Shown here one piece after another: positions 41,041 to 58,423 of a stretch of DNA of 59,107 bases. The notes under the pieces were generated by a model. That model saw nothing but the letters and a program-made list of their open reading frames with translations. It was not told the origin of the DNA and made no database searches. Source of the stretch: an uncultured bacterium (lineage in GTDB: Bacteria > Chloroflexota > UBA5177 > JANWHV01); assembly GCA_963729625.1 (NCBI GenBank), contig CAVSOU010000001.1:1-59107 (forward strand), read 5' to 3'. Position 1 is the first letter of the stretch. Every line of letters starts with the position of its first letter. A program made the position numbers and the translations under genes.

Positions 41041-41158
41041 TGGTACACGGACTGCGGGCAACAACAGCACAGGGTGGCAACGCTCTCCACCAGATCGTTG
41101 GCCATGATCTTCGCCAACTTATCCTTGAGAAGACGTGCAGGGCAGAGCCACTTTGTGT

Positions 41159-41216: not shown

Positions 41217-41456
41217 GTGGCCGTTGTCACCGTTCGCAACGTACCGGAAGAGACTCATCGCGCACTGAAGCTTCGCGCTGCCCAGCACGGGCGCAGCACT
41301 GAAGCAGAAATCCGTGAGATCCTCGAAGACGCCGTGCGCCCTGCAGCACGCGTCAAAATCGGATCACAACTGGCCGCCTTCGGGCAGCGGTTCGGGGGTC
41401 TCGATCTCGACATCGCGAGAGAGCAAGCGCCAACCGAGCCTGCCATATTCGAATGA
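41217..41456 (+). CDS. fitA: FitA-like ribbon-helix-helix antitoxin
   Basis: VTVRNVPEETHRALKLRAAQHGRSTEAEIREIL; GAGGAG RBS; GTG start. Confidence 0.9.
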   Translation: MAVVTVRNVPEETHRALKLRAAQHGRSTEAEIREILEDAVRPAARVKIGSQLAAFGQRFGGLDLDIAREQAPTEPAIFE

Positions 41457-41896: not shown

Positions 41897-43945
41897 CTAA
41901 AGCTCCACCACCTTCGTCACCGCCCTGTCCACGTCGCTGTAGAACACCACGTCGAGCTTCTCCACCACCTCCTCCGGCAGGCTGGCAAACTGCAGCTTGT
42001 TGCCGGTCGGCAGCAGCACCCGGAGGGCGCCGTTGTCCAGGGCGAGCTGGAGCACTTCGCCGATCGATGACAGTGGTTTGACGTTGCCCTGAATGGTCAG
42101 GTCGCCGAGCACCACAGTGCCGGCCTGCACACGGCGGCTGCCGATCGCTGAGAGGATCGCAGCGAAGAACGCCACGCCGCAGGCGCATTCCACCCGACCG
42201 CCGGAGAGGTCGATCGCTTCGGCCACCACATCCTTTTGCGCCAGGGCCTCAGACAGGCCCATTCGGTCGCGCACCGACCCGAGGTACGCCCAGGCGCGAT
42301 TCAATGACTCCTTGAGCCCGTGTTCGAGGCCGGTCGGGGTGCGCAGCTTTCCCGTACCCGCCGTCAGTGTCACTTCCAGCCGATACAGGGACATCCGCGC
42401 TTCGTCGTCGATCGCCGCGGTGTAGACCGTGCCTGGCGGCAAGGGATCGGCGGAGATTACGCCGCGGCCTCCCTGCTCGGGCACCCCAACGGCGCGTTCG
42501 ACGCCGTCATCCAGGTCGAAGTACGAGAAGCTGGTTTTGTAGAACTCGAAGGAGCCGCGCTTCTTCAGCTGTTCCTTCACCCTTCGGCGGCCTTCAATGG
42601 CCAGCTCGAGATACTCGCGCAGCTCATCGCGGCTGACTTCGCCGTCCGGATGCAAGAGCTTGAGAAACCCACTGACCGTGCGCCGCACCGCGCTGGCGTC
42701 ACGCCCTTCCAGATGCGAGCCCAGGCGGAAGTGCGCGTCGATGGCGTCGAAGCGGTTCTGCTTGCGCAAGGCTCTGAAAGCCTCCGACATGTAGTCGGTC
42801 ACGAATCCATAGTGGTCCGTGAGCAGATCCTTCGACGTCTTGGGTATCTCCCAGCCCGGCAGATAGAAGTGCAGACGGTCCAGGACCGCCAGGTCGAATT
42901 CCTTGGCCAGCGGCTGGAACAGGTCGGTGCCCGCATTCTGCACCAGGGTCTCGACGCTCTGGTTGAGGTTCCCGACGAAGGCCAGGGACGCGTCCGCCAT
43001 CACCTGCGTCACGCCGCGGCTGAAGCGGCCATTCGCCATGTAGTCTTTCATGATCTGGATGGTGTCGGAGTCCGTCACCTTCATGCCGGCGACCTCGTCG
43101 AAGGCCACCGTGTCCCAGTGCCCGACCAGGCCCACAGTCCGGCGCGCGTTGTTGTAGAAGAGGTTGGCGCTGCTGGCCTTGCCGCCGGAGATCAGGATGC
43201 AGTATGGGGACATCTCGCTGAACACGTAGCTCTTGCCTGTGCCGCGCGGGCCCAGCTCGATGAAGTTGAAGTTCTTCTCCACGAAGGGGATAAAGCGGCT
43301 GATGAAGAGCAGCTTGAGTCGCCTCTCCATCCGGTCGGGCTCCATGCCCGAGCTGCGGACCAGCACATCCATCCACTGCTCGGTCGAAAAGGCGTGGCGG
43401 CCTTCGCAATACTCCGCGAAGTCGAAGCGCGCGAGCTGAATAGGCCGCAGATCGCCGATATGGAACGGACTGCCGTGCTTCTTCGCATTGCCGTCGTCGT
43501 CAGGCTCCGGACGGTACTCCACGTCGATCAACGCCCAGATACCGCCCTCCAGTAGCCGGTCGTATTGGCGATAGAACCGCTCGTTGACGTGGATGCGGTT
43601 GAAGCTGAAGTTATCCATCGCCGCCCAGTACTTCATCTCACTGGGCAGGAAGCGCACCTCAATGCGATCGATGAAGCGATGGCTGCCGCGCCGTTCTACT
43701 TCCGATTGCGCCCTGTTGGCCTGGTCGTGGCGGAAGTAGTTGTCGCCGAGGGTCGTCTTGACCGCTTCGATGCCAAGACGGATCTCCTCCGGGTCATCGG
43801 AGGCGCAGTAGCGGCCGAGCAGATACTCCAGCACGTAGCTGGGCACGTTCTCGCCGCCTTTGATCAGGTGAAGCAGATCCTTGCGCACCACCTTGCCGGG
43901 ATAGGTGCGCAGCAGGAGCTGGTCCAGGGCGTCGGTGTCGCTCAC
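41897..43945 (-). CDS. brxL: BREX BrxL (AAA+/MCM-like plus Lon-like domain)
   Basis: YPGKVVRKDL, NVPSYVLEYLLG, ELGPRGTGKS, FDEVA, RRRVKEQLKK; last gene of the operon. Confidence 0.93.
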   Translation of the reverse strand: MSDTDALDQLLLRTYPGKVVRKDLLHLIKGGENVPSYVLEYLLGRYCASDDPEEIRLGIEAVKTTLGDNYFRHDQANRAQSEVERRGSHRFIDRIEVRFLPSEMKYWAAMDNFSFNRIHVNERFYRQYDRLLEGGIWALIDVEYRPEPDDDGNAKKHGSPFHIGDLRPIQLARFDFAEYCEGRHAFSTEQWMDVLVRSSGMEPDRMERRLKLLFISRFIPFVEKNFNFIELGPRGTGKSYVFSEMSPYCILISGGKASSANLFYNNARRTVGLVGHWDTVAFDEVAGMKVTDSDTIQIMKDYMANGRFSRGVTQVMADASLAFVGNLNQSVETLVQNAGTDLFQPLAKEFDLAVLDRLHFYLPGWEIPKTSKDLLTDHYGFVTDYMSEAFRALRKQNRFDAIDAHFRLGSHLEGRDASAVRRTVSGFLKLLHPDGEVSRDELREYLELAIEGRRRVKEQLKKRGSFEFYKTSFSYFDLDDGVERAVGVPEQGGRGVISADPLPPGTVYTAAIDDEARMSLYRLEVTLTAGTGKLRTPTGLEHGLKESLNRAWAYLGSVRDRMGLSEALAQKDVVAEAIDLSGGRVECACGVAFFAAILSAIGSRRVQAGTVVLGDLTIQGNVKPLSSIGEVLQLALDNGALRVLLPTGNKLQFASLPEEVVEKLDVVFYSDVDRAVTKVVEL

Positions 43946-46485
43946 TCCATCCTTCCATTCTTGAGGGATAGCTTCGCAAAGATGGCACCGGTGCGCGGGT
44001 CTGTAGCGCGAATCTCGATTCTCGAGCCGGTGAAGTTGCTATCGATCACAAGCGGCACGGCTGTCTCGACGCCGGCCTGGAGCGTGATCTCGCCGGTGTC
44101 GGCGTTGCGGGCATCGCATTCCGCGGCCACTCCAACCATGCGCGCTTTTGGGCCGACTCCATCATAGGCCTCGACGCGCACGTCCACCGACTGGCTGACG
44201 AGACTGGCGTTTACAAGCTTTGCTTTCAGGCTGATCACCGTGGTGGTGAAGCGGTCCTTGCTATAGGTGAGCGCGATCTGTTCGCCGCCGCCCAATGGCT
44301 GCGCCTTCTGCAGACGGACGACAACTGCCGGCACAATGCACTCCTGCAGCGACAGGCCCTCATGAAAATAGCCGGCGCCGGCATTGAACGTCTTGAAGCC
44401 CATAGCAGTGACATAGTCCTCGATCGAACCGACGATGCCCACATCGCGTGCGGGAAGGCGCAGAATACCGGCTGCAGTGCTGTGCGCTCTGCCAAGCAAC
44501 GAACGCCGCGTCTTCAGTAACCACTCGCCCGCGGGCGCGGACAGCGCGTCGCCCGCCGCGACTTCGGGCAGGATCATGTGCCCGTGGTCCGCTGCGAAGA
44601 CCAGTGTCTGGAAGCCGAGATTGGCCAGGCGAGTGGCAGCGCCGCGAAGCTCGCCGAGCACCTCGGTCATAGAGCGGCGCGCACGATGCAAGCTGATACC
44701 TTCACCCAGATCGTCGATGTCCTGCGTGCGAACCACCAGGAGGTCGGCCACGCCGATCTGTTTAGCCAGTGCTTTCTGGGAGACGGCGCGCAGGTCCTCG
44801 AGCGTGATATCGACGACCCGGTCCCGGTAACGCGTCTGTAGCAGGGCCTGGCGTTCAGCAAGGCCGGGTAGAGGCGTACCGCCCACGGCAGGGACGGCGT
44901 CCCCCTTGTGCTCCACTGCGGTGAAAGCACCGTCGGCACCCGGCAGCAGCGCGGCCATGCCGAACGCCGTCTTGGTGGGCAGGACCGCAGTGATCGGATC
45001 GAGCTTGACCTCTCCGAGGCCGGCGAGTGTGGTCACAAGGTCACGGCCCATCTCGTAGCGCAAACTATCGACCAGAATATACGCGGTGCGGCGCCGCTCG
45101 TTCAGCTCGGGGGCCACGTACGTATCGAAGATCTGGGTCTGCCTGCGGATGCCGTCTGGAGGCCAGCCGCCTGCCTTTACATTCTCCTGGAAGACGACTT
45201 GAGTGCGCTCTACCACCGCGCGATACCTGGCCCGGCAGAGGCCCAGCAACTCTTCTACCTCGTCGTCATGCTCGCACTGCGCATGGGCATACTCATACAG
45301 CCGCTGGGCGCGATCGAGCCCCCAAAGCCCCTCAGACCCGCTGTACAGATCGACCAGGACGTGGAGTGACCGCGGGAGACTGATTCCGTCGAGTTCGGCG
45401 GCGACGGCCAGGAAGCCAAGTGAACGCTCGACCGCGCTCCAGAGCAACGCGCGGTCGGGCTGGCGTCGCCAGATTGACGTCACGCCGCCGCACAGTGCCT
45501 CGGCGGTGGCCAGTCTACCCTGAACCGCGGCGGCCACCACACGCTGCAGACGCAGGCGATCCTGTATGGCAAAGGTGTCACGCGAGCCAAGCCGGGAACT
45601 CGAGCCAAGCGCTCCAGGTATGCGCAAGTCGCGTTCGGCTTCGCCGGCCAATGCAATGTAGGCGTCGCGCCCGGCCTCGGTGTCCCGCAACCGCGCGCAG
45701 ACGGCGAGAACATCCTGCCGGTGAGGATCATCGGCATGTGGCACGCCGCTCAGTGCCGCGGGCAGGCCCTCTGGTAAATCAAAGGCCAGCTCGCTGGCAA
45801 GCAGATACCGCGCCAGGCGGCTGCGCAGGGCAGGCCATTTCTCATCCTCATGCTGAGGAAAGCCGATCTTCGACCCGGCCAGTCTGGCAAGCTCACCGGA
45901 AGCGCCGGGTACAGCGCCGAGTCGCGCGGCGGCTTCCGGGTCGCTCAGTGCCATGCTCAAGACTTCGACGGTGCTGTCGCTCCCGAACGCCTGAGCCACA
46001 AGCGGGTACCGGCTCCCGGCCTGCAGACTGTCGAGGAGTACCAGCGTGGGCTTGCTCTCGCGAAATAGCCGGGCGATCTCCGTGGCCTGATCGGGGAGCG
46101 CCTGGACAGCCAATGCCTGCAGCTGCTCACCTTCGTGGCTGCCGAACGTCGTCCCACAGGACGCGAACGCGGCGAAAGGATCCTGCCGTCGAGCCTCGGC
46201 GGTCATTTCGAAGCCGCCGGGAACGTAGATCAGGAGGTTCGCGCTTGCGCCGTCACCGCCGTTGCTCTCATTCAACTGGCGGTACGCCGCTTCGGCGGTG
46301 CGCCTGGCCCGCAGCGCCGACCCACTGGCAGAAACCACGATCGTATCGGGAGATTCAAATCCCTTTAGCAGGCCCTCGAAGTCGCACTGCGAGTCATACC
46401 AGACCACTACTCGGCGCTCACGCAGAATGGCGTTGACGCGGTCACGCACGTGATCGGACACAGGCTGAAGCGTTGCCGGCTTCAC
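43942..46485 (-). CDS. pglZ: BREX PglZ phosphatase-domain protein
   Basis: VDSLRYE, LPTKTAFGMAALLP, ADHGH, YFHEGLSLQE. Confidence 0.92.
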   Translation of the reverse strand: MKPATLQPVSDHVRDRVNAILRERRVVVWYDSQCDFEGLLKGFESPDTIVVSASGSALRARRTAEAAYRQLNESNGGDGASANLLIYVPGGFEMTAEARRQDPFAAFASCGTTFGSHEGEQLQALAVQALPDQATEIARLFRESKPTLVLLDSLQAGSRYPLVAQAFGSDSTVEVLSMALSDPEAAARLGAVPGASGELARLAGSKIGFPQHEDEKWPALRSRLARYLLASELAFDLPEGLPAALSGVPHADDPHRQDVLAVCARLRDTEAGRDAYIALAGEAERDLRIPGALGSSSRLGSRDTFAIQDRLRLQRVVAAAVQGRLATAEALCGGVTSIWRRQPDRALLWSAVERSLGFLAVAAELDGISLPRSLHVLVDLYSGSEGLWGLDRAQRLYEYAHAQCEHDDEVEELLGLCRARYRAVVERTQVVFQENVKAGGWPPDGIRRQTQIFDTYVAPELNERRRTAYILVDSLRYEMGRDLVTTLAGLGEVKLDPITAVLPTKTAFGMAALLPGADGAFTAVEHKGDAVPAVGGTPLPGLAERQALLQTRYRDRVVDITLEDLRAVSQKALAKQIGVADLLVVRTQDIDDLGEGISLHRARRSMTEVLGELRGAATRLANLGFQTLVFAADHGHMILPEVAAGDALSAPAGEWLLKTRRSLLGRAHSTAAGILRLPARDVGIVGSIEDYVTAMGFKTFNAGAGYFHEGLSLQECIVPAVVVRLQKAQPLGGGEQIALTYSKDRFTTTVISLKAKLVNASLVSQSVDVRVEAYDGVGPKARMVGVAAECDARNADTGEITLQAGVETAVPLVIDSNFTGSRIEIRATDPRTGAIFAKLSLKNGRME

Positions 46486-46979
46486 AGCACGCGCCCCTGT
46501 TGAGGCCCGAACCCGAGCTGGACGCCCGAACCCTTGACCCGCACGGGGTACGGCCTGCCCCGGAAGCTCACCCTCTTCTTTAGTAGCCGTTCAAAATTGG
46601 CCGAGTGGACGCCCCCACTGTGCACAACCACCGGCATAAGCACCTCTCTAGCCCTCCCACGCGGTTTGACCTGGAACCTTGCGTCGCTCTCGATCGCTCG
46701 CGCGCCAGCCTGTAGCTGGGCCACTATGTCGCTCACACCCTGTAGCCGGCTCTTCATCTCCAAGACCATCCAGGTAAGGCCGGAGTTGTCCGCAGCGCAG
46801 AGCACGATGAAATCCGGTTTCTTCCCAACTATCGCGTTAAATGCGCTACATAGGTCGCAGGAGACGCAGCAGCACTGATCGGCATTCACCATTGCGAACG
46901 ATTTTCCGGCCCGAGGCTGAGCGACCAGGCAGCCACAGTCGTGGAGCGCTTTCAACAACAGAAGGCGCTCGGCGCTCAT
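46482..46979 (-). CDS. Small putative PD-(D/E)xK nuclease
   Basis: KKPDFIVL...VLEMKS...QLQAG; TAATG overlap with the ATPase and GTGA overlap with pglZ. Confidence 0.65.
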   Translation of the reverse strand: MSAERLLLLKALHDCGCLVAQPRAGKSFAMVNADQCCCVSCDLCSAFNAIVGKKPDFIVLCAADNSGLTWMVLEMKSRLQGVSDIVAQLQAGARAIESDARFQVKPRGRAREVLMPVVVHSGGVHSANFERLLKKRVSFRGRPYPVRVKGSGVQLGFGPQQGRVL

Positions 46980-48457
46980 TACTCGCCGGCCTCCGAGCTG
47001 CCTTCCTCGCGAGCTGCGGAGATGCGGTACGTCTCATCGCCGATGGCCTCGAGGACCGGCAGGAAGTCTTCCTCTGATATGCCGAACTCCTCGTCTATCG
47101 GCACCTCTCGCACCACAGTCCCATCGGTTTGACAATCAAACAGGTAGACACCGATATCCTCCTTGTTCAAGATGTCGGCCCCAGCATAACCCAGAGCCGA
47201 GCGCTCGTCCGGAGGCAGATTGGAGGCAAGGAGAAGATTGCTCAGTTGATGCAGTATGAGCGAGCTATGCGTAGGGCACACTACACGCACTCCGGCGCGG
47301 ATCAGTCTTACCAACACTCGTGCGATCTTGCGCTGGTTCTCCGGATGCAGGTGGGCCTCCGGCTCATCGATGATCAGAAGGTCGCCGGGCTCGACCACGT
47401 GCTTTATCCATAGGTCCAGTGGCGCAAGCTCAGCCACCATGGACGAAGCACGCTCAATCGGAATGCTGCCGGCGCCAGACCTGTAGAGTAGCTGGGCATC
47501 CGTCGGGCCCGATGTTTTCATTGACACGTTCCCGCGAAAGATATCCTCCTCTAGCGCGGAGAGCGCCGCCCTCATGGAGTCACCGGTTTCTCTTGGCCGC
47601 TGGGCCGTCAGTCCAAGCAGTATCTGCATGAAATCACGAGCGACCTCAGAGATGACTGGTACCGCTATCCGCCCCCTGCCCGCGAAGCGTCCAACTGTCT
47701 GCACAGCCACGGATGCAACCATCTGCCAGCCCTGAAGGACCCCCGAACGTGCAGCCGGCAGATAGAATGCACAGCTCTCTGGGACACCGTGCTCCTGCCC
47801 CCACGTTTGAAAGATGTCCCCAGCCGCTATCTGCAGCAACTCAAATGGGGGCGGTTCACTTCCAACCCTGCTCACGGTCTTGAGTGGTATTCGATAACCG
47901 GTGAGGCTGGGGCCGGTGATGGTAATCTCCTCCTTCATAGCGCCAACACCCTGCGTGATTTCGAGAAACGGCGGACTAGTCTGCCCAACTGAGAGACTCA
48001 CACTTGTTCCACTGCCGCCGTTTGGCGCGTGAGCAAGCTCTGAGAAGCTCGCAATGTTGAAGTAGTTCCTGACAGACCTGACGCATTCTCCGCGTACGTC
48101 GGCAATGTGCGACTCTATCGCGTCCTGGAACGCCTGCTGGACCCTCGAAGGTGCGCCGGAGAGCAGTGGATCGGTACGGGTACGCTGCACTGCCGCCAGG
48201 TAGTCTTGCATGTCCTCACGGTACTTATTGAACAGCTCAGGATCATACAGACTGGACCCCACATCGTATCCCGCGCTACTTCTGTACAGAGGAGCCCCAG
48301 TAATCGCCCGTGTCAATGCGTAGATGAGCAATGCCAAATAGGACTTGCCGCTGTTGTTCGGGCCGATCAGCAGGGTAAGGGGCCTCAGCTCAACCTGCCC
48401 TCTCACGATCGGGCCGACATTCTGAACGCTAATGCTCAGGTTCTTGTGATCGGCCAT
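46979..48457 (-). CDS. ABC-type ATPase (AAA_15/AAA_21-like, defence-associated)
   Basis: GPNNSGKS, YLPAARSG, ASSMVAELAPL, LIIDEPEAHLHPENQ, THS. Confidence 0.9.
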   Translation of the reverse strand: MADHKNLSISVQNVGPIVRGQVELRPLTLLIGPNNSGKSYLALLIYALTRAITGAPLYRSSAGYDVGSSLYDPELFNKYREDMQDYLAAVQRTRTDPLLSGAPSRVQQAFQDAIESHIADVRGECVRSVRNYFNIASFSELAHAPNGGSGTSVSLSVGQTSPPFLEITQGVGAMKEEITITGPSLTGYRIPLKTVSRVGSEPPPFELLQIAAGDIFQTWGQEHGVPESCAFYLPAARSGVLQGWQMVASVAVQTVGRFAGRGRIAVPVISEVARDFMQILLGLTAQRPRETGDSMRAALSALEEDIFRGNVSMKTSGPTDAQLLYRSGAGSIPIERASSMVAELAPLDLWIKHVVEPGDLLIIDEPEAHLHPENQRKIARVLVRLIRAGVRVVCPTHSSLILHQLSNLLLASNLPPDERSALGYAGADILNKEDIGVYLFDCQTDGTVVREVPIDEEFGISEEDFLPVLEAIGDETYRISAAREEGSSEAGE

Positions 48458-48965
48458 GGTCCCTTCCCTTCAAATCGTTGGAAAACGCGGACTGGCGAGT
48501 CGCCTGCTGCAGCTGCCGCACGAGCACCAGCTGTCGCTCCATGTTGGCGATGCGCGCGGCCGGGGTTTGCGCAAGCGCATTCTCTACCAACGACAGGTCC
48601 ACACCCCAGCGCTGCAGCTCGCGCAGGCGCGCGTGCCGTCCAGCCGCTTGGGCAGCGTGAGGTCCGGGCAGAATAGGTGTTGCACGCAGGCGTTCGCCCT
48701 GCACGAAGCGGCGCACCAGCTCAGGCAGGCTGTCGGTGCTGCCGCGATCCTCCTCCTGCACGATGAAGGCGGGCAGCAGTTGGATGTCGCGCATCAGCTT
48801 CTCGCGTGCCGGCGTATCCGCGGGACCACCACCCACGTCCGCCTCCGCCTGTGCGGCGAGCAGGGCCAGCACCAGCGCTTTGCTGCCGGCGGCATCTGGC
48901 GGTAGCTCGGACCTCAGCATCGGCTGCAACCGGGCATTGAAGGATTGCACGCGCGTCTCATTCAT
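48429..48965 (-). CDS. Hypothetical protein with antitoxin-like C-terminal helix pair
   Basis: 178 aa; start overlaps the pglX stop; GVDLSLVENALAQTPAARIANM segment. Confidence 0.65.
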   Translation of the reverse strand: MNETRVQSFNARLQPMLRSELPPDAAGSKALVLALLAAQAEADVGGGPADTPAREKLMRDIQLLPAFIVQEEDRGSTDSLPELVRRFVQGERLRATPILPGPHAAQAAGRHARLRELQRWGVDLSLVENALAQTPAARIANMERQLVLVRQLQQATRQSAFSNDLKGRDHGRSQEPEH

Positions 48966-51900
48966 CGTCGTCTGCCTCTGCGTCCAGCGTGGCCACGGCG
49001 GAGGGCGCGCGTACGCGCCGCTTCTTTACCGCGGTGCCGGCCGGCTCCACGTACAAATCCTCCAGGCCGTGTGCAATGGCCAGCGACTTATCCGTGCGGC
49101 ACTTCTCACGCACCCGATCGGGCCAGATCGCGTACGCCAGGTGCGCCCAATCGTAGTCGCCGCGCTCCAGCTTGTTCCAGCACTCCTTCGTGTCCTTGGC
49201 CCATTTAGGCAGACGGAACAGGCGGTGCAGTGGCGCGGCGTTGATGATCGCGCCGTCGTTCAGATCGGGACGGTAGGGCAGTGCGGCTACCCGCAGCAGC
49301 TCATCGCGGAAAGCGGCCAGCTCCTCGCGGAACGTCTGCCGGCCTTCAATCTCCTCCCTCAGCCGCGTCGCCTCACGCCCGCTGGCGGCTTCCAGCCGTG
49401 CACCCAGCTCGGCCACGTCGCGCTCGACCGATGACACCTTCGGCAGCACGTACCGGTTCACCGCAGTGAACAGCGTGTCGGAGGTGAGCCGGTGGTAGGA
49501 GATCCACAGTGTGTACGAGCAGGATGGCGTGGAGAGCGGCCAGTAGATAGGAGCCTGCCGACGGCTCTTCGAATACTGCGACAGATGGTGAGCGAAGAAT
49601 GAGGCGGGACGCCGGACGTACTCGCGCAATCCTTTCACTTGCAGGATCTCGCATGCCTCGGCTTCGATCGCTTCAGCGCGCTCCTCAAACAGGTATGCCA
49701 GCACGGCCTGTACACTCCGCACGATGTCATCCTCAGGCAACTCTGAATCATCCACCAGGATGCCGGACCACTGGATGGCAATCGGGTAGTTGGTGGGCAC
49801 ATGCTCTGGCCGTGCGGGGATCCGCCCAGGGCGGAAGGGGAGAGGCCCCGCTACCCCCACAAGCGTGGCGTCCTCGGTCAGCATGCCGGGCGGACAGCTA
49901 GCGAGCGGACCAAAGGCGTCGCCTGGCGTGGCCGCCCACTCGGGATGTTTGCCTATGCGGGCGTCCCAGCGACCAAAGACTACACCTAGAGCGTACCCCA
50001 CTACATTGCTTGAAACAGCTGAAGCATCCTCTTCTTCGAACTCAGCTCCAAAGTAAAGTCGCCAACGCCCCGCCGCGGGAGGGATTCGCGCTCGAAAGTT
50101 ACGATCCATTTCCTCTATGTCGCCAGATGAAAGGCCAAGGAGCTGACATGCAATCTCGTCAATGCGACCCCTGACGCCGAGTAAATCACGAATTGTCGTC
50201 GTCTCTTCCTGGTGCCATGCGCGTGCCGATGCGGCCAAGCCATCGCTGTTCACCCCAGCAGGAGAAATGAAGTCATGGGCGGTCTCCTCGATCTGGTACA
50301 GGCTCCTGACCAGCTGTACCGCATTCGTGGCATGGGTGGTGAGCAAGCACTCGTCATGAGCCGGCACGTGCGGCCAGATCAACCTCTGGATGACACCAAC
50401 TTCATAATGATTGGGATGAGAACCGGCCTCACCTTGAAGAGATCCGACGAAGAAGCTCAGGACATATTCCGCCGGCCTACTTGACATATACGCCAACAGC
50501 GCTGCAGGGGATACATCCTTGGCGAACGCAACCGAACCGGTATGGGAAAACCCCGACCCATGCGGATGGACTCTAGCATTAAACCCCAGGACCGACCGAG
50601 ATGGAAATGTGACCCCCGGTAGACCAAAGCACTCCGTTCCCTGAACACGAGATCTTCCAGTTGCCTGGATCTCAGCGCCTGCAGCGCCATACTTAACGAC
50701 CCAGCTAGGGTCGTCCCAAAATGGGCTGTATTCACTCGACTTTGTGTACGGAAGCCATCCGGCCGAGGGGACAACCTCCCACCATGCGTATGAAAAGCGG
50801 AACTCGTCAGCAGTCACCATTCCCTGCCGAACGGACGCCCCACTTCCTTCAAGAGGTGGAAGAGTTGAGAGTCGCGAACGGAACTCATCCGAAACCCAGT
50901 ATGCGAGAGGGGATCCGGGAATGGAAGTCACGGCCCTTAAATCGAAGAGAAACAGGTCACCAGGCCAATTGCCTGCAGACGTGCAGTCTATTGCCTGCTC
51001 AAGTTCCATTTGCTTATCAGCATCGAGTTGAACACGGAATATCGCAGCTGCGTCAGATGCCTGGGGCGAAATAACCATGGCAGACGCGCTAACGGTAGCG
51101 CCGTCGAGCACGTCCCCTCCCAACTGCGCTCCAAATGCCAACGCTCTAGTAGGGCTGGCCAGATTTGCCAGCCGCCAGCGCCTGAATGCAGGCTGGAACC
51201 AAGGCCGTGTTGACAGGAGGACACCGACCAAGCCAGTTGGCGCCCAGCGCTCTCCAGCTGCTGTAACAAAGGCGCTCCCAATGTCCCTGCCGCTCTCCGC
51301 AAGCTGGCGTTCAAGTACCGCAGCGGAAGCAGTCGAGGCATCGCCAAATGGCGGATTCATCAGCACAACGCCATAACGCTGTCGCAGAAGGTCAACGAAC
51401 CTGAACCCCTGGGTCCCGTCGGCCGCGAAGAGGCGACGCGTGGCGGCATCGCCGTTCTCCGCCATCTCGCTATACGCTCGCAGCACATCCAGGATGCGCA
51501 CTTCCGCGGCATTCCAGAAGCCGTCGTCAGTCACGTCGGAGAAGTCCAGCGCTTGCTGCGTTGGCGGCGAGTACCCGGCGAATAACGCGTGCTGTACGCC
51601 GCCGGATTGCGCGCGGTAGCGTACGTGCTCTTCCTTCACGATCTCCCGCAGCCGTTCCTCGGGCTTGAGCAGGCTGCCTGCCACACCCGCTAGTGCTAAC
51701 TCGTCCCACATAGCCTCCGCCAAGCGCGCCAACGTCGGCGAGTCCAGAGCAGTGAGGAAGCGGGTGAAGTGGTTGCGTTCGCCCGGCATCGGCGCTGCGC
51801 AGACAATGTTGCCGCGGCTGATCGCCGGTCGCTCCGCCGCCTTCAGGCCGACGTCCTGGTAGGCCCGCTGGGCACGCAGCCACAGCGCCAGCGCCGCGAT

Positions 51901-53424
51901 CTGGCAGGCACGCGGGTCGATGTCGATTCCATGCAGGTTGTGTCGCAGGATCAGTGAGGGCGTGGCGCGCCGCAATACCTCGAAATCGGGGTAGTCGTCG
52001 CGCAAAGTGGTGCCGGTGGCCTCGCTCGGCACGGCACGGCTCCAGGTCCATCCTTCCTCGTAGATGGCGGCGAGGAGATCGAAGGCGTAGAGCAGGAAGT
52101 GCCCGCTGCCGCACGCCGGGTCGAGAATCTTGATGTCCCTCGGGTCTTTCGCTACGCGGTAGGGGATGTGCTCGGTCTCCAGATCCCATTGGCGGCAGAT
52201 CGCGGCGTTGAGCGAGCGTAGCAACGCCAGGTCCTCCTCGGATGGTCCACCGTCGGCATGCGCCCATCGGCGCTGGCAAACAAAGAGAGTAATGCGCAGT
52301 TCCTCAAAGCTGCCCTGCCATTTGGCTGATTGTCTGTAGGCATCCTGGCAGCGGTTCGCCACCTCGAAGAAGGCCTCCGAGGCATCCTGAACCCCCTGCA
52401 CTTGATGGGCGTAGCCGTAGTCAATAGTCATGCCGTAGTGCAGGATGTCCCAGAACTCCGTCAAATCTGGATTGGGACGCGTCCACATCTCACCTGCGAT
52501 ATCGGGATCCGTGTATCCATCCTCCGGCTTCCACGGCGCCGGCGCTTCCTCCAACAGACCAAGGAATACCGGTCGCTTCCGCCGCACCATGTACCGGCAT
52601 TGCTCGACCAGACGCGTATCGCCCTGCCGCATCTCGTACCAGGTGCGGCCGAGGGTGTTGTCCGTCAGGAACTCCACCACGTAGCGCGGCGTGAAGAACT
52701 GGTTGCGTACCGCCAGCTCGCGGCTGGTGCGCGGCGCCTGCGACTCACGCATCTTCTTGCGCTCGTCCGGGTCGTTGTAATACTGGTACACCCAGCCGAT
52801 CGTCTCGTCTTCCGCCCACAGGTGCGCCAGCTCGGCTCGATTCAGTAGGGCAAGCACGTCGTCCAGGCAGCGCTCGCCTGGGAAGATCAACGAATGGGGA
52901 TCGGTGCGATCGAATAGCGCCGGCAGGTCGCGGGCGATCTCGTCGTAGAGGCACTCCAGGTACGTGCGATAGGTTTCATGGCGGCTACCCAGCGCCCCGC
53001 CTGCCAGCCGCTCAAAAACCTGGAAGCCGCTCGAGGCCGGCCCGGCCCCGGCGCTCTGCACGATCAGCCCTCGCTCCTCCGCCATGCGCAGGGCCACCAG
53101 ACGGTTGAGTGTCGTGAAGCCGATCTCCCGCGCCATACGGTCGTACGCGTCGCGTGCAATATCCCGTGTGCCCCTGCCCCCGGCGCCTGTCTCGCCCGCG
53201 CCACGTTCCGCTGCAATCAGATGCTCCAGCAGCGCCCGTAACTCCGCACCGGCGGCACGCTCCGCCTCGGTGAGGTCGCCAATGGCGGCAAGATCCAGCA
53301 CGGTGCCGTCATCCTGAAAGCCCAGACGCCGCAACTCGTCCATCACGTCGGTCTTGAGTCGCTCGCGGATCTTGCCGACCGCGTTGGCGAGCAGGTTGCG
53401 CGTGTCGCGATCGAAGCTCATCAA
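48958..53424 (-). CDS. pglX: BREX PglX adenine DNA methyltransferase
   Basis: IGWVYQYY, NQFFTPRYVV, ILDPACGSGHFL, GIDID, MNPPF, YSKSRRQAPIYW, PDLNDG. Confidence 0.93.
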   Translation of the reverse strand: MMSFDRDTRNLLANAVGKIRERLKTDVMDELRRLGFQDDGTVLDLAAIGDLTEAERAAGAELRALLEHLIAAERGAGETGAGGRGTRDIARDAYDRMAREIGFTTLNRLVALRMAEERGLIVQSAGAGPASSGFQVFERLAGGALGSRHETYRTYLECLYDEIARDLPALFDRTDPHSLIFPGERCLDDVLALLNRAELAHLWAEDETIGWVYQYYNDPDERKKMRESQAPRTSRELAVRNQFFTPRYVVEFLTDNTLGRTWYEMRQGDTRLVEQCRYMVRRKRPVFLGLLEEAPAPWKPEDGYTDPDIAGEMWTRPNPDLTEFWDILHYGMTIDYGYAHQVQGVQDASEAFFEVANRCQDAYRQSAKWQGSFEELRITLFVCQRRWAHADGGPSEEDLALLRSLNAAICRQWDLETEHIPYRVAKDPRDIKILDPACGSGHFLLYAFDLLAAIYEEGWTWSRAVPSEATGTTLRDDYPDFEVLRRATPSLILRHNLHGIDIDPRACQIAALALWLRAQRAYQDVGLKAAERPAISRGNIVCAAPMPGERNHFTRFLTALDSPTLARLAEAMWDELALAGVAGSLLKPEERLREIVKEEHVRYRAQSGGVQHALFAGYSPPTQQALDFSDVTDDGFWNAAEVRILDVLRAYSEMAENGDAATRRLFAADGTQGFRFVDLLRQRYGVVLMNPPFGDASTASAAVLERQLAESGRDIGSAFVTAAGERWAPTGLVGVLLSTRPWFQPAFRRWRLANLASPTRALAFGAQLGGDVLDGATVSASAMVISPQASDAAAIFRVQLDADKQMELEQAIDCTSAGNWPGDLFLFDLRAVTSIPGSPLAYWVSDEFRSRLSTLPPLEGSGASVRQGMVTADEFRFSYAWWEVVPSAGWLPYTKSSEYSPFWDDPSWVVKYGAAGAEIQATGRSRVQGTECFGLPGVTFPSRSVLGFNARVHPHGSGFSHTGSVAFAKDVSPAALLAYMSSRPAEYVLSFFVGSLQGEAGSHPNHYEVGVIQRLIWPHVPAHDECLLTTHATNAVQLVRSLYQIEETAHDFISPAGVNSDGLAASARAWHQEETTTIRDLLGVRGRIDEIACQLLGLSSGDIEEMDRNFRARIPPAAGRWRLYFGAEFEEEDASAVSSNVVGYALGVVFGRWDARIGKHPEWAATPGDAFGPLASCPPGMLTEDATLVGVAGPLPFRPGRIPARPEHVPTNYPIAIQWSGILVDDSELPEDDIVRSVQAVLAYLFEERAEAIEAEACEILQVKGLREYVRRPASFFAHHLSQYSKSRRQAPIYWPLSTPSCSYTLWISYHRLTSDTLFTAVNRYVLPKVSSVERDVAELGARLEAASGREATRLREEIEGRQTFREELAAFRDELLRVAALPYRPDLNDGAIINAAPLHRLFRLPKWAKDTKECWNKLERGDYDWAHLAYAIWPDRVREKCRTDKSLAIAHGLEDLYVEPAGTAVKKRRVRAPSAVATLDAEADDDE

Positions 53425-56400
53425 CGCACGTCGATTCTGATCGGTGCGCCCGCGGCCATGCTGTTGCGGATGCGGGCTTCAACATCGGCCAGCCACGTCG
53501 AAAGTTCTTCTTCGTTATGGATCACAGCCGACCGCGCCACCGCGCCAATGGGCAGGCTGACCGGCGCCGGATCCGATCCCGGCTCCGCGATGACGAGCGA
53601 AGGTACTCGCCGTGCCACTTCCGTTTCCAGCTTCTGGCGCAGTCGCGGCACGTCACTCTGCCGGAACAACAGCAGCTTGAGGCCGGACAGCTCTCTTTCT
53701 TCCACCGGCAACTCCGGAAGATCCGACTCCGTTTCTTCCGCTATTTCGGCGCGGTCATCGTCGCCGATTTTCAGCCAGTCCAACAGACCTTCGAGATCCG
53801 TGCGAACCTGCTGCAGGGCATCGGCATACCCTGCCATTTGCTCCCGGTACGCCGCGGCAGCACGTTCGCGCACCCTGCGCACAAGGGTGCGAAGGTCGGG
53901 CAGTCGCTCGTAGAATTGTTCGGAAGCCAGCGAACCCTGCAGTATCTCTCGTTCCGCCGACTCGAGCACAGCCGGCAGCCAGGGGAAGAGCTGTGCCAGC
54001 TCGTCCGCGTCGCGGAGCACCGCTCGAGCTGCCTGGATATCGTCTTCTGCACCACCATCAAGGGCTTTCACTACCGCTCCCGCCCAGGCCAGATCGGCCG
54101 GGAATGCGCAATCCTTGGCACCCAGGATATCGATAGCCGCCGCGCCGTCCTGGCCCTGCACGTCTTGACCCGTGGCCAGGAACGCCAGCGCCCGTGCTTC
54201 GCCGGACAGGCCGAGCAAGCGTAGTTGCTCGGGCACCGGTGCGAACGGGGAAAGCAAACGAGGGAGGTGCTCGCGCACGGCCTTACCGATCTGGTCTTCG
54301 TGCGGCAGTATCTCCCTGCCGATCATCTCCTGGAGCCGGCTTGACGCGCGATCGAGTGCCTCCAGAGGTGGGCGGCTATCGCGCAAACCGACTCCCACTT
54401 TGTTGAAGCTTTGCGTGTTTCGCAGCGCGTCCTCGGCGGTGGGGCCCCTCATAGTCACGGGCCCAGAAGCAGGATAGAGGACCAGCTCGCCCGCCACGAG
54501 CAGGGCAGCGAAAACATAACGCGTGGCATCCTTAGACCATCCGTACGGCGCCACGGCAAATCGGTCCTGAATGGCATTGCCCTGGATTCGGCCAGTTTGA
54601 GCATCGTGCAACATCTCCCGAAGCAGCCTGAGTGCCTCTGCGAGGGCAGGATGCTGGATATTTACACGCGACTTGCCACCGATCTTGCTCACGAAGCCCA
54701 GCGGATCGCTGACCGAAGGCATGCGGTCCAGGCCGTCCACTTCTAGGAACTTCACGGCCAGATCTGTGGACGGGCGGATGTTGACCAGATGGAACTGCGG
54801 ATAGATACGCGCCGCGGCATCGGACAGCACTTTTCGAGCCGCCGCATCCAGCGTGGCGCCGGCGGTTGCAGCAGGCGTCGGCGTGCCTCGAAAGATGAGC
54901 GTGCCTTGCAGCAAGGCCGTCTGATACAGGGAACGGGCCCGCGCAATGTGTCTCTGCTCGGCCACGCGCTCGGTCCGTACATACGCCGCGACGTCCTTAG
55001 ACACCTCGGACGCCGACACCTTGCGCTGAATGTACTGGGAGCGAATTGCCTGTGCGAGCGCGTCCTCGACAGTATCCTCGGGGCGCATCAGCCAGGCGAT
55101 GGCGTTCTTCCACTCCGCGTGGCCGGTGCTCTCTGCGAGCAACGTGGTACGACGATCGTCCCACATGGCGCCGGAGACGGCTTCCAGCCGAAACTGCACT
55201 TCCTCGTCGTCACCCACGATGGCCGTCCTGCCGTACTGCACGCCGGCTTTGACGGTCTTTGCACCCTCAATTGTGACTGCGGGCAGCGTGTCGAATAGCT
55301 CCTTCAAGATCGTGTTGCGCAGCGTGGTCACCTCGGCGGCGGTGGGGACATGGCTGTCGCGGTCCCGCACGATCGGCTTGAGGCTGTCGCTGAGGAAACT
55401 CACCCCGCCGGCCTGTGGATCATCCACCAGGCCCAGCTCTTTGCTGTCCAGCAACGTGCGCAGGGCGGCGCGTACAGCATCCAGGTGCGGCGCATCGCCG
55501 ATCTGGGGGTACAGCAGGGCGGCAATATTCTCCGCGTTGCGCGGGAAGTTGTCGATCGGCTGCAACGCGGCGATGGCCTTGGCCACCCGAAGCGGCGTGA
55601 CGTCGCCTGGAAAGGCCTGCGCCACGCGGTCCACGCCGGTCACCACGTGCGGCAGCACTTTCAGGATGTCGGCGCGAAGCGTGTCGAAGAACGCGTCGAC
55701 CGTGGCCAAACGACCAACGGCGGCGTCGGCCAACAGCGGGGCGCCAGCGGGAAGCACCTTGCTGGTATCCACGAGCACGTCCTGAATCACCCTGATCGCC
55801 GAGCGCAAGCCAAGGCCGCTGAATTGATCGCGCTTGGCGAGCGCTCGTACCAGTTCCATGAGCAGGTCGAAGTGCTGCGGCAGGAACGGGTAGAGGTGCA
55901 CGAAGCTCTGCTCGTCGATCTCGCTCTTGACCATTGACGTGCCGGCCAGACGGGTGTTCATGGCCAGGGACTGCCCATGCTGGCGATACAGCGCGCCAAG
56001 CTGTGCAGTGCCCTCGGCGCTCTTGGTCAGCAGGCGTTTCCAGGTGATCTCGCGGATGTCCCTGGCATCCAGCTCGAGCCCAATGGGGAAGCGATCGCGC
56101 AGCTTGTTCAGATCCACCGAATTGTAGGCGGCCCCGTCCACGATCTCGCTGAGCGTCTGCTGGCCGGTCGCCACAATCCAGGCCTGGCCCCGTCCCAGTT
56201 CTTTGATGTTGCGCGCCAGTCCATCCAGATTGAGGATCAGCTCGCGGCGGGGCGCCACATACTGGCCTGCCTCGTCTATCAGGAACAGCACGTTGCGGTG
56301 CCCGCTGCGCCGGCGGATCACGTCCAGCATGTCCCGCACCTGGTCTCGCATGTCGAGGGCGAGCGAAAAGCGCAGTTTGTTGAAGACGCCGGGCTGAGGG

Positions 56401-57080
56401 TACTCCTTGGGATAGAACCGCGTGACCAGCTGGTCGGCACGTGGCACGCCAACCAGGGGATCGTCGTGTACTGCTTCCCAGGCCTCATGAAACTGCGCCT
56501 GATGCGCAGCCTTGAATTCCTCCAGCCTGCCGTCGCCCTCGAGCTTCAGCTCCAGCTCTGCGAGCTTCTTCTCCTTTGAGAAGCCCGCCCACTGCAGCAC
56601 CTTCCAATACAGCACCGTGGAGACACTGTCGCTTGCCGACTCCGCAAGCTGCTCCGAACCGAGGTCCAGCATGATCACCGCTGCCGGCTGCTGGGTGGCC
56701 AGCGTGCGCAGATCGCCCTTCACCACGGGGCTGTTGATACGCTCCAGCAGCAATTCCAGGAACGGACGCCCGTTGACTTGCCGCGCGGGATCGAGGCCGA
56801 AGCCCAGGTATTTGGTGAAGGAGCTTTTGCCCGAGCCGTAGAAGCCTGACACCCAGATGCCGACCTGGGTCACCTGGCCGGTGCGCACGCCCTGGCCGAA
56901 ATGGTCGAGAAATCGCTCGAAGTTCCGCTCCACATTATCGGTCACCTCGTACTCCTCTATCTCCGCCAGCAGCCGGTGCTCGTCGGTGGCATAGTAGTCG
57001 ATGACCTTCTCGATCGGTCTGTCGATGCGACGCTGCTTGGAGAAGAGGTCGCGGATGGTGCCGGCTCCGGTAGTAATCAC
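53421..57080 (-). CDS. brxC: BREX BrxC P-loop ATPase
   Basis: GFYGSGKSS, LIDEAGQY, KLRDRF, LYPFLP, PYGW. Confidence 0.93.
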   Translation of the reverse strand: MITTGAGTIRDLFSKQRRIDRPIEKVIDYYATDEHRLLAEIEEYEVTDNVERNFERFLDHFGQGVRTGQVTQVGIWVSGFYGSGKSSFTKYLGFGLDPARQVNGRPFLELLLERINSPVVKGDLRTLATQQPAAVIMLDLGSEQLAESASDSVSTVLYWKVLQWAGFSKEKKLAELELKLEGDGRLEEFKAAHQAQFHEAWEAVHDDPLVGVPRADQLVTRFYPKEYPQPGVFNKLRFSLALDMRDQVRDMLDVIRRRSGHRNVLFLIDEAGQYVAPRRELILNLDGLARNIKELGRGQAWIVATGQQTLSEIVDGAAYNSVDLNKLRDRFPIGLELDARDIREITWKRLLTKSAEGTAQLGALYRQHGQSLAMNTRLAGTSMVKSEIDEQSFVHLYPFLPQHFDLLMELVRALAKRDQFSGLGLRSAIRVIQDVLVDTSKVLPAGAPLLADAAVGRLATVDAFFDTLRADILKVLPHVVTGVDRVAQAFPGDVTPLRVAKAIAALQPIDNFPRNAENIAALLYPQIGDAPHLDAVRAALRTLLDSKELGLVDDPQAGGVSFLSDSLKPIVRDRDSHVPTAAEVTTLRNTILKELFDTLPAVTIEGAKTVKAGVQYGRTAIVGDDEEVQFRLEAVSGAMWDDRRTTLLAESTGHAEWKNAIAWLMRPEDTVEDALAQAIRSQYIQRKVSASEVSKDVAAYVRTERVAEQRHIARARSLYQTALLQGTLIFRGTPTPAATAGATLDAAARKVLSDAAARIYPQFHLVNIRPSTDLAVKFLEVDGLDRMPSVSDPLGFVSKIGGKSRVNIQHPALAEALRLLREMLHDAQTGRIQGNAIQDRFAVAPYGWSKDATRYVFAALLVAGELVLYPASGPVTMRGPTAEDALRNTQSFNKVGVGLRDSRPPLEALDRASSRLQEMIGREILPHEDQIGKAVREHLPRLLSPFAPVPEQLRLLGLSGEARALAFLATGQDVQGQDGAAAIDILGAKDCAFPADLAWAGAVVKALDGGAEDDIQAARAVLRDADELAQLFPWLPAVLESAEREILQGSLASEQFYERLPDLRTLVRRVRERAAAAYREQMAGYADALQQVRTDLEGLLDWLKIGDDDRAEIAEETESDLPELPVEERELSGLKLLLFRQSDVPRLRQKLETEVARRVPSLVIAEPGSDPAPVSLPIGAVARSAVIHNEEELSTWLADVEARIRNSMAAGAPIRIDVR

Positions 57081-57643
57081 GCGAGACCTCCAATCGGGGT
57101 GGCGCGGTAGTTATTGTCCTCCGGGTAGAAACCGAGGAATTGTAGGCCGAAGTGGCCCTTACGCAGGCCGGGATAGAAGACGACCGTCGGCCTCTTTGTC
57201 CGGTCGTGGAGAGCACTTTCGAGAGCGCGTACTCGGAAATAGGGATGCAGCATCTCCGTCTCGGTCAGGAACACCACGCTGTTTGGGCGCGGCTGCTCGA
57301 CGATCTGGGCAACGCGCCGCACCAGGACGTCGTCTCGCAGGATGCTGCGTATAGAGGCGTTGACCTCCTCCGGTTCGAAATCTGCTTCCGCTGCCAGCCA
57401 GCCGTCCCATCGGCCCGTTGCGTCGACAAGCTCCCACAGCAGATCCGAGAAGGACACACGCTCCACATCCAGACCCGCCTGCCGAAGCTGAGCGGTCCAC
57501 ACCGGCAGGAGATGCTTGACCGTCAACGCCTCAGCCGGTGGATAGACAAAGTAGAAGAAGGGATCGCTACCTGCCGCGCTCAGGGAGCCGCGCTCGACCA
57601 GCCGCTGCCGCAGCGTCGCGAAGTCATCGTCCAACGAGGACAT
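57077..57643 (-). CDS. brxB: BREX BrxB (DUF1788)
   Basis: FYFVYPP, LHPYFR, VVFYPG, NYRA; located between brxA and brxC. Confidence 0.88.
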   Translation of the reverse strand: MSSLDDDFATLRQRLVERGSLSAAGSDPFFYFVYPPAEALTVKHLLPVWTAQLRQAGLDVERVSFSDLLWELVDATGRWDGWLAAEADFEPEEVNASIRSILRDDVLVRRVAQIVEQPRPNSVVFLTETEMLHPYFRVRALESALHDRTKRPTVVFYPGLRKGHFGLQFLGFYPEDNNYRATPIGGLA

Positions 57644-58412
57644 CCAGCACCTCCTCAACGCTGCCGTAAGTCCAGCTGATACGGACCACATCACCCGCGC
57701 GTTGGACGATCAGCCAGCCGGCGGCGACCAACCCCTCTAGCCGGTCCAGCACGTCGCCGGGACCGAGTCCGAAAAGAGCCCACCCCGGCTGGGAGGCCAG
57801 CGACGCGTCGGTCACCCCGCGATCATGGAGGAGATAGGCGATGTAGATGATGGTGCCGTCGGCTGGCGTGTAGCGAAGTACGGACCGCCTTCCAGGCGCA
57901 TCCTGGCGGACCAGACCGAAGCCGGTCAGTGCCGCGAGAAGTATCCTCGCCATCTTCTCGCGCACACCGCGAGACCATGGCACGGCGATTCGCCCAGCCG
58001 AATGAGCTTCCGCGATAAAGTGCCATGCGTCTTCGGTCCTCAGCTCTGCAGCGCCTGCACGTACCCTCGGCCAGTATGACTCCGAGATAAAGTCCCGCAG
58101 CATGGCGTCCTGGCGGGCAGTGTAGTACATGACGAGATCAGTAAACATCTGGCGCGGCGCACTTGGCGCAGCCAGCCGTTTCAGATGCCGCGCCGCTATA
58201 TCGTCTGGGCGGAGGAAGCGCAAAGAGAAGACCTGCACGATGTTCTGCGCTCGCGCGGCTGTTGCACGACCAAGCACGTCATCGTTGAGCACGCGCCGGC
58301 CCAAATCGCCTGCGGACTCACCAGGATGCCAGGTCTGGAGCAGCGCACGCACTTCGGGAAGCAGTGCCCCGCCCTTGGCGAGCATTTGCGTGTAGCGAAC
58401 TTGCGGCTGCAA
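57624..58412 (-). CDS. brxA: BREX BrxA (DUF1819)
   Basis: KGGALLPE, VLGRATAAR, PWSRGV, WALFGL; operon position. Confidence 0.85.
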   Translation of the reverse strand: MQPQVRYTQMLAKGGALLPEVRALLQTWHPGESAGDLGRRVLNDDVLGRATAARAQNIVQVFSLRFLRPDDIAARHLKRLAAPSAPRQMFTDLVMYYTARQDAMLRDFISESYWPRVRAGAAELRTEDAWHFIAEAHSAGRIAVPWSRGVREKMARILLAALTGFGLVRQDAPGRRSVLRYTPADGTIIYIAYLLHDRGVTDASLASQPGWALFGLGPGDVLDRLEGLVAAGWLIVQRAGDVVRISWTYGSVEEVLDVLVGR

Positions 58413-58423
58413 CTACAACACCG

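Follow-up and report, generated by a model that had tools for sequence, protein, structure and literature searches.

The window analysed here, a stretch of 59,107 nucleotides from an uncultured bacterium of the phylum Chloroflexota (contig CAVSOU010000001.1 of assembly GCA_963729625.1), carries a type 1 bacteriophage exclusion (BREX) operon. Between pglX and pglZ lie three open reading frames (ORFs): ORF178, an OLD-type ABC ATPase of 492 residues and a small protein of 165 residues (ORF165). We consider it probable that 46482-48457, which holds the last two, is an autonomous two-gene anti-phage module of the WonAB, PD-T4-4 and PDC-M47 kind, made up of the ATPase and a small PD-(D/E)xK nuclease, which was swapped into this slot of the BREX operon. 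The locus belongs, as a divergent member, to a described group of ATPase-nuclease defence systems and lies in a slot already known for BREX cargo; PARIS in the BREX of Salmonella D23580, cited in a first-pass annotation of this DNA, is presumably another occupant. That annotation had taken the three ORFs for an uncharacterised three-gene cassette. Its gene coordinates and four overlaps on the minus strand between pglX and pglZ are exact, and the ORFs are real genes, with 37 homologues for ORF178, 105 for ORF165 (E<=1e-3) and 591 for the ATPase.

The family of the module is most readily seen in its ATPase. The protein matches the Pfam families AAA_15 (8.8e-17) and AAA_21 (1.5e-15), and its best PADLOC matches are to PD-T4-4_A (2.8e-41, 140 bits, with 126 bits on a second PD-T4-4_A model) and PDC-M47A (3.4e-30, 103 bits), followed by weaker ones to NsnB (81 bits), AriA (69 bits) and GajA, PtuA and Old (30-52 bits), mostly around Walker B. 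The Walker A, Walker B and H-loop motifs that had been called intact at first pass are invariant in an alignment of 27 sequences: Walker A reads G32-x-N-N-x-G-K38-S39, R237 stands at the Q-loop position, and S338-S339, the Walker B/D-loop stretch E365-P-E-A...H371 and the H-loop T396-H397-S398 are equally fixed. The C-terminal extension is conserved as well, residues 438-476 falling among the invariant columns, and this extension together with the motif set makes the protein an OLD-type ABC ATPase. Of its 591 relatives in the database, the best non-self one is 59% identical and the others at most 45%.

For ORF165 a word-indexed search recovered the query alone among 76 candidates; an exhaustive HMMER search was required to find its 105 relatives, the best of them 42% identical. 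Across a 58-member alignment of the family E74 never varies and D56 is conserved to at least 90%, and in ORF165 and its 16 closest homologues P55, D56, E74, K76 and Q88 are all invariant. The PD-x-E-x-K motif noticed at first pass thus stands, with D56, E74 and K76 conserved, and the cysteine cluster reported beside it stands in part: C41-D42-x-C44 is invariant and C15 nearly so among the 16 closest homologues, where they may form a structural metal site, whereas the CCC run before them is private to ORF165 and its nearest relative and is not family-wide. ORF165 has no Pfam or NCBIfam family, and in PADLOC it reaches sub-threshold matches only, to SduA/DUF4263 (E 0.007) and PDC-M47B (E 0.018, 12.7 bits). 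Its AlphaFold model (predicted local distance difference test, pLDDT, 84.3; predicted template modelling score, pTM, 0.80) has the alpha-beta-beta-beta-alpha-beta order of the restriction-endonuclease core, with D56 opening strand 2 and E74-x-K76 within strand 3. The top rows of a Foldseek search are Bse634I (E 0.02, probability 0.99), Cfr10I, EcoO109I, EndoMS/NucS, HamA and Mus81, and rows 1-20 of a VIA-align comparison with 48,161 chains are almost all PD-(D/E)xK nuclease domains, from VC1899, Cdn1, Can2, AF1548, Bse634I, Cfr10I, NucS, Upx and LlaBIII. Combined with the motif, this weak fold evidence supports the prediction that ORF165 is a PD-(D/E)xK nuclease. As had been noted from the letters of the sequence, TOPRIM, HNH, helicase and DUF262 families are matched by none of the three ORFs in PADLOC, Pfam and NCBIfam scans, and the same scans find no NsnA, NsnC, GajB or other third component.

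The two genes are kept together far beyond this genome. An alignment-based scan of species-representative genomes gave 79 ATPase loci; with the single ATPase sequence as query the genome scan returned no relatives, and the alignment-based query was needed. Of these loci, 74 have an ORF of at least 60 residues whose start lies between -90 and +250 nt from the ATPase stop, with a spacing of -4 to +10 nt in most cases. A relative of ORF165 directly after the ATPase gene is recognised by tblastn in nine of the 79, and the ORF165 family takes in 16 of the 74 downstream ORFs by phmmer and 63 by an iterated hidden Markov model (HMM; five rounds, the final one still adding one sequence). A tblastn search with ORF178 finds a match in none of the 79. 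A small protein of the ORF165 family in 63 of 74 loci and ORF178 in none of 79 together imply that the travelling unit is the ATPase and the small protein without ORF178. The co-occurrence check suggested at first pass therefore came out in favour of the pair, whose linkage is kept both inside and outside BREX. Directly downstream of the ATPase there is thus a small protein of predicted restriction-endonuclease fold, maintained as its partner and marked by D56, E74 and K76 and by weak fold matches, which places the pair in the wider superfamily of such systems.

By their record titles, these loci span many bacterial phyla and archaea, with many assemblies of Poribacteria, Caldilineaceae, Dehalococcoidia and Cenarchaeum. 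Two copies of the pair were seen in some genomes, namely CBDAUQ010000002 (loci L019 and L040) and isolate jk18xAbins.24 (L025 and L031). Defence context was scanned in 38 non-redundant loci by comparing the nearest 1-2 ORFs per side (121 of 149 flanking ORFs) with PADLOC at E<=1e-10, and a clear defence match stands in the flanks of 14 of them, or 15 if a doubtful oxidoreductase model is counted. At L047 the pair is embedded between HmaA upstream and HmaB downstream, at L041 a fragment of HmaB lies beside it, and at L016, L033 and L049 a type III-like methyltransferase lies upstream. Further flanking genes encode Dsr2 (L021), HEC-01B (L024, L031), PDC-M41A (L028), mad3-like ATPases (L001, L050), SoFic (L012), a pAgo-like protein (L052) and PbeA/type IV (L062). 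Searching the 79 loci by tblastn with the BREX proteins of the window revealed one further type 1 BREX, in a Desulfobacterales assembly (L073, 4-7290), with the order pglX-ATPase-small-pglZ-brxL and no ORF178. The ATPase there is just 26% identical to that of the window, which implies that the pair arrived in that slot independently. Among plasmid and phage records, tblastn with the ATPase matched 33 and 3, respectively, none with at least 80% query coverage; these served only as a source of genuine PD-T4-4 pairs and of one phage example. The latter, in the P2-like Vibrio phage 1.202.O of the Peduoviridae (L095, 1613-3644), has a homologous ATPase of 469 residues and a protein of 209 residues between the repressor and integrase genes.

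Of the systems already described, PD-T4-4 (Vassallo et al. 2022, PMC9519451; PADLOC PDLC04032-04037) gives the best PADLOC model for the window ATPase. The gene order is the same and the sizes are similar, 492 and 165 residues against 462-483 and 198-209 in the two genuine PD-T4-4 pairs from E. coli plasmids that we used for calibration. On PD-T4-4_A the genuine ATPases reach 862 and 410 bits (range 364-862) and on PDC-M47A 227-307 bits, while PD-T4-4_B gives 357 and 147 bits for their small partners. By comparison, about 98-150 bits on PD-T4-4_A are scored by the window ATPase and by seven relatives, including those embedded in BREX (L073) and in Hma (L047), which implies that the sampled clade is a distinct, distant and roughly equidistant branch. 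Pairwise, the window ATPase is collinear with a genuine PD-T4-4_A from an E. coli plasmid at residues 7-52 and 317-479, with 32-36% identity. These alignable ends are the Walker A end and the part from the signature motif to the C-terminus, and the middle of about 260 residues, which holds the inserts, does not align. This fits PMC12137116, according to which relatives differ in their Insert 1/2 regions. At the level of profiles, hhalign relates the ATPase alignment to PD-T4-4_A with a probability of 99.6%. Strict membership in PD-T4-4 was considered for the ATPase and rejected, as there is no member-level full-length score (140 bits in two stretches, the middle of about 260 residues left unaligned).

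The nuclease shows its relatedness at the level of the family. Although the window ORF165 is not among them, at least 12 of its 58 family members match PDC-M47B at E<=1e-3, three match PD-T4-4_B (two PDLC04035 and one PDLC04037) and two match PDC-M29B. In hhalign the 58-member profile reaches a genuine PD-T4-4_B (L092) with 83% probability (E 9e-6), aligning the D...(D/E)xK catalytic core, and the 209-residue protein of the phage pair with 94.6%. The window nuclease is unlike PD-T4-4 in that it has no direct HMM match, against 147-357 bits in the genuine members. PDC-M47, a candidate of PADLOC-DB v2, has models that derive, according to bioRxiv 10.1101/2024.01.29.577857, from genes found within BREX, DISARM or type I restriction-modification systems; the name PDC-M47 has no occurrence in the main text of that preprint. 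The locus resembles PDC-M47 in its embedded position within BREX, in the ATPase match to PDC-M47A (3.4e-30) and in that the near-threshold match of ORF165 to a described pair is to PDC-M47B. It differs in score, the window ATPase reaching 103 bits where genuine PD-T4-4 proteins reach 227-307 on the same model, and PDC-M47 is itself a predicted system only.

The relative that has been studied by experiment is WonAB, from the WASA-1 prophage of Vibrio cholerae. PMC12137116 describes it as an OLD-type ABC ATPase with a PD-(D/E)xK variant, relates it to PD-T4-4 and to an 'OLD-ABC ATPase + novel REase' operon that encompasses WonAB, and reports that defence needs both WonA and WonB and is lost in point mutants of the ATPase and of the nuclease. 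It further reports that the toxicity of WonB, which is Lon-labile, depends on active WonA, and that the outcome is a lysis-independent abortive infection in which translation is halted and the chromosome stays intact. PD-T4-4 in turn is counted with the PD-(D/E)xK nuclease-NTPase systems in bioRxiv 10.1101/2025.07.10.664194, which also describes its assembly into higher-order complexes. The likeness of the window pair to WonAB, as PMC12137116 describes the latter, begins with the arrangement of the genes, in which the one for an OLD-type ABC ATPase bearing a C-terminal extension precedes, in the same orientation, the one for a small PD-(D/E)xK-variant nuclease. It extends to an arginine in the Q-loop position (R237 in the window, R182 in WonA), to the catalytic lysine of E/D-x-K (K76 here, K71 in WonB) and to mobile and defence-associated contexts. 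The stretch from Walker A to the H-loop is some 64 residues longer in the window ATPase (K38...H397) than in WonA as numbered in that paper (K34...H333), so the inserts differ, and WonAB is prophage-borne whereas the present pair lies in the BREX operon of an environmental bacterium.

The novelty that had been proposed for this locus therefore does not hold: its ATPase matches PD-T4-4_A and PDC-M47A and is collinear with a described ATPase at both ends, its nuclease family reaches PDC-M47B, PD-T4-4_B and a genuine PD-T4-4 partner, and, on the relatedness set out in PMC12137116, WonAB is an experimentally studied relative. What does hold of the first-pass reading is its core, an ABC ATPase with a small PD-(D/E)xK nuclease that together most likely form a defence effector under ATPase control, in a variable pglX-pglZ slot and apparently arranged for co-expression. 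PARIS, Menshen, Gabija, Septu and OLD likewise join an ATPase of the OLD clade to a nuclease partner. The partner is a TOPRIM nuclease in PARIS (AriB), Gabija (GajA) and OLD and an HNH nuclease in Septu (PtuB), whereas that of the window is a minimal PD-(D/E)xK protein. PARIS was rejected, with only 68.6 bits on AriA and no AriB (DUF4435) or TOPRIM match in ORF165 or ORF178; so was Menshen, with 81 bits only on NsnB and no NsnA or NsnC match for ORF178 or ORF165.

The surrounding operon occupies 41897-58945 of the minus strand and is a complete type 1 BREX, with brxA, brxB, brxC, pglX, pglZ and brxL in order and at full length, all six PADLOC profiles being matched almost end to end. The features of the locus are as follows.

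46979..48457, minus strand: OLD-type ABC ATPase of 492 residues, by analogy the sensor/activator half of the two-gene module (Pfam, PADLOC, motifs)

46482..46979, minus strand: ORF165, predicted small PD-(D/E)xK-fold nuclease of 165 residues, the putative effector half (motif, AlphaFold model, pairing)

48429..48965, minus strand: ORF178, an all-helical protein between pglX and the ATPase gene, with no function assigned by family or fold

46466..48491, no strand given: swapped-in segment bearing the ATPase-nuclease pair (non-homologous to the paralogous BREX remnant, lower GC)

48958..53424, minus strand: pglX, the BREX methyltransferase and upstream flank of the slot (PADLOC PglX PDLC02527, 1282.6 bits, profile 1-1308 of 1332)

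43942..46485, minus strand: pglZ, the downstream flank of the slot (PADLOC PglZ 2.3e-204, profile 7-836 of 840)

41897..43945, minus strand: brxL, a Lon-like protease and the last BREX gene (PADLOC BrxL 1.4e-271; Pfam BrxL_ATPase, BrxL_N, Lon_C)

53421..58945, minus strand: BrxE-family gene with brxA, brxB and brxC (PADLOC BrxA 4.2e-70, BrxB 9.5e-42, BrxC 1241.9 bits)

58945-58424, minus strand: BrxE-family gene, upstream in the operon (NCBIfam BrxE_fam 2.1e-34)

Every junction within the slot is an overlap: 8 nt between pglX and ORF178 (ATGAATGA), 29 nt between ORF178 and the ATPase gene, TAATG between the ATPase gene and ORF165, and GTGA between ORF165 and pglZ. A scan of the operon for promoters and terminators gave 1 promoter-like and 12 terminator-like sites, not above shuffled sequences. 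Among sequencing runs, none of RNA is listed as containing this DNA, and just two DNA runs share a fraction of 0.08 of its words. Judging only from the gene overlaps, the pair is probably co-transcribed with BREX and translationally coupled to its neighbours.

How the pair came to lie there can be read from a second, decayed BREX locus in the same genome (13070-15401 of L084, about 171069-173400 of contig G000:C11, minus strand). This remnant begins with a BrxE-like N-terminus fused to the last ~120 residues of PglX, continues with an intact homologue of ORF178 and an intact ORF of 189 residues that overlap in ATGA, and ends with residues 8-159 only of PglZ. By blastn, window and remnant are 85% identical over 49259-48492, that is, the 3' end of pglX and most of ORF178, and 83% identical over 46465-46019, within pglZ from about codon 7; between 48492 and 46465 there is no match. 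Upstream, homology ends about four codons ahead of the ancestral ORF178 stop, and the window ORF178 has gained from the swap a new tail of 20 residues, which overlaps the ATPase start and holds the ATPase ribosome-binding site. Downstream, homology resumes just inside pglZ, whose first ~6 codons belong to the swapped segment. This segment, 46466-48491 (2,026 bp), has a GC content of 0.591, lower than that of the window (0.635) or of the BREX genes (0.62-0.66), and no repeats flank its ends beyond short ones at chance level. The ATPase profile finds the gene in this genome only of 21, and in none of 20 relatives, among them four congeneric genomes that are 83-95% complete. The most economical reading of the two loci is that the ATPase-nuclease pair replaced a nucleotidyltransferase gene in a slot that had held a pair of ORF178 and nucleotidyltransferase.

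That earlier pair deserves attention in its own right. The 37 homologues of ORF178 (49-74% identity) are all unnamed, and ORF178 has no usable match in Pfam, PADLOC or NCBIfam, a RecX match (E 0.006) lying far below the cut-off. Its model is all helical (pLDDT 77.1), and Foldseek finds no match (best E 1.6). A search of 61 genomes found the copy in the remnant, 73% identical, and weaker copies in two genomes of the same genus. The 189-residue protein that follows it in the remnant has no Pfam or PADLOC match; a protein atlas places it among nucleotidyltransferase clusters, with DUF6036, DUF2204 or AbiEii on 10-45% of the members (score 0.96). In eight of nine places outside the window, the query's own among them, the next gene after the ORF178 homologue encodes a relative of this protein. 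At L089 none was found after the ORF178 homologue, and at L087 (6987-7512) the nucleotidyltransferase-like gene matches in two frames and seems frameshifted. The pairing of ORF178 with an AbiEii/DUF6036-like nucleotidyltransferase was seen to recur at L081, L082, L086, L087, L088, L090 and L091. It lies inside BREX at L086, an intact pglX-...-ORF178-nucleotidyltransferase-pglZ-brxL locus, and it also occurs where the short flanks examined show no BREX gene. An extra ORF of 343 residues, which carries a QGVAQG-type repeat close to the C-terminal end and has no match in PADLOC, was observed at L086 between pglX and the ORF178 homologue (399-1430, plus strand); its presence beside the pair implies that the slot is able to take several cargo genes together. 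In the remnant, the two intact genes within a decayed BREX suggest that the pair outlived its BREX and maintains itself. No PADLOC, Pfam or NCBIfam model covers the pair, which we regard as a candidate toxin-antitoxin-like or defence module. By tblastn the nucleotidyltransferase gene cannot be traced in the window itself (best E 2.2), and the ORF178 of the window is, on this comparison of loci, a leftover of the slot's previous occupant, outside the ATPase-nuclease module.

Several observations weigh against the assignment of the pair to a two-gene defence module of the WonAB and PD-T4-4 kind. The fold of the nuclease has no Foldseek match at E<=1e-3, and the best VIA-align Z is only 6.0, middling by the tool's own warning. 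The window ATPase scores 140 bits on PD-T4-4_A in two stretches, where genuine members score 364-862 bits in one full-length stretch. ORF165 itself has no significant direct match to a described model (PDC-M47B E 0.018; PD-T4-4_B none even at E<=10), pairwise BLAST with a genuine PD-T4-4_B gives E 0.66, and a narrow profile of 16 ORF165 sequences meets a second genuine PD-T4-4_B (L093) with a probability of 1.4%, which is not significant. The link to WonAB is a likeness by description, resting on the relatedness that PMC12137116 states between WonAB, the 'OLD-ABC ATPase + novel REase' operon and PD-T4-4, and the count of 14-15 defence contexts among 38 loci stands without a background rate. 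Taken further, the doubt would leave a pair with no role in defence, either an ATPase-nuclease for housekeeping or repair, or a passenger in decay, and 23-24 of the 38 representative loci indeed have no PADLOC match in their nearest flanking ORFs. We hold this to be highly improbable: both ORFs are intact with all catalytic motifs present, the best family matches are all defence ATPases, and the pair turns up again within BREX and Hma, as well as on small plasmids of E. coli and, between repressor and integrase genes, in a P2-like phage.

Two other readings accept a defence role and draw the unit differently, and each of them seems to us unlikely. One makes ORF178, ATPase and nuclease a single three-component system in which ORF178 would serve as an antitoxin, a regulator or an adaptor. 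The ORF is both conserved and intact, its 29-nt overlap with the ATPase start may couple translation, and elsewhere it precedes an AbiEii/DUF6036-like nucleotidyltransferase, the usual position of an antitoxin. This three-gene grouping, the one chosen at first pass, is contradicted by the lack of any tblastn match to ORF178 in all 79 ATPase loci, by its place in a flank conserved with the BREX remnant and by its homologues, which partner a different gene in eight of nine places; the swap boundary lies about 20 codons before the ORF178 end, so the overlap with the ATPase is a by-product of the swap. The antitoxin-like label finds no family or fold match, and the one thing that suggests it is the pairing with a nucleotidyltransferase. 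The other reading takes the pair for a non-autonomous BREX accessory, which lends BREX a nuclease activity or is set off only once BREX has been inhibited, by Ocr-like DNA mimics for instance. Its attraction is that the pair sits inside BREX with overlaps at all junctions, that a distant homologous pair occupies the same slot of a second BREX (L073), and that in the Payne et al. preprint anti-BREX proteins are put forward as possible triggers of embedded ABC-ATPase systems. BREX proteins, however, adjoin the pair in that one locus of the 79 only, a far-off PglX-like fragment at L040 being the sole other trace; other loci have the pair within Hma, next to type III-like methyltransferases or away from any recognisable system, and WonAB and PD-T4-4 function without BREX (PMC12137116; PMC9519451). 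There is also a slim chance that the ORF178 family and its nucleotidyltransferase form an undescribed, self-maintaining module that colonises the slot, and that the ORF178 of the window was kept because it now serves the ATPase-nuclease pair or BREX as a regulator or adaptor. If true, ORF178 would be a 'constant head' with an exchangeable effector, a modular arrangement inside BREX.

For the autonomous two-gene module that we favour, WonAB offers a model of how it could act. The ATPase would dimerise and carry the small nuclease on its conserved C-terminal extension, and an infection cue would lead to ATP-dependent licensing of the nuclease. The nuclease would then damage cellular or phage nucleic acid, and the infection would be aborted. 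The halt of translation with an intact chromosome in WonAB suggests that the nuclease may act on RNA and not on chromosomal DNA. In this reading the cassette swap, which brought the module into the pglX-pglZ slot and removed the nucleotidyltransferase gene that normally follows ORF178, probably gave the bacterium a second, independent defence layer alongside BREX.

Some other genes of the window may be mentioned. Just past brxL, on the opposite strand, lies a PIN-domain ORF (41453-41878, plus strand; Pfam PIN 3.2e-9), possibly a VapC-like toxin bordering the defence locus, and beyond it are two unassigned ORFs on the minus strand (39777-41117 and 39294-39761). Farther away on the plus strand are a Uma2-family putative restriction endonuclease (13669-14523), a protein of 789 residues with a Ser/Thr kinase domain (3569-5938) and a Kelch-repeat protein of 1293 residues (21135-25016). 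The remaining genes, such as transporters and oxidoreductases, are ordinary chromosomal ones in appearance.

The understanding of BREX and of ATPase-nuclease systems is unchanged by this locus. What it adds to the WonAB/PD-T4-4/PDC-M47 group, only two members of which have been tested, is a divergent branch that is widespread in uncultured bacteria and archaea. It also flags the uncatalogued ORF178-nucleotidyltransferase pair as another recurrent occupant of the slot. It further offers a clean natural exchange of cargo in the pglX-pglZ slot, in which two paralogous loci of one genome have flanks 83-85% identical and different cargo between them, and the boundaries of the swap are mapped to within a few codons.

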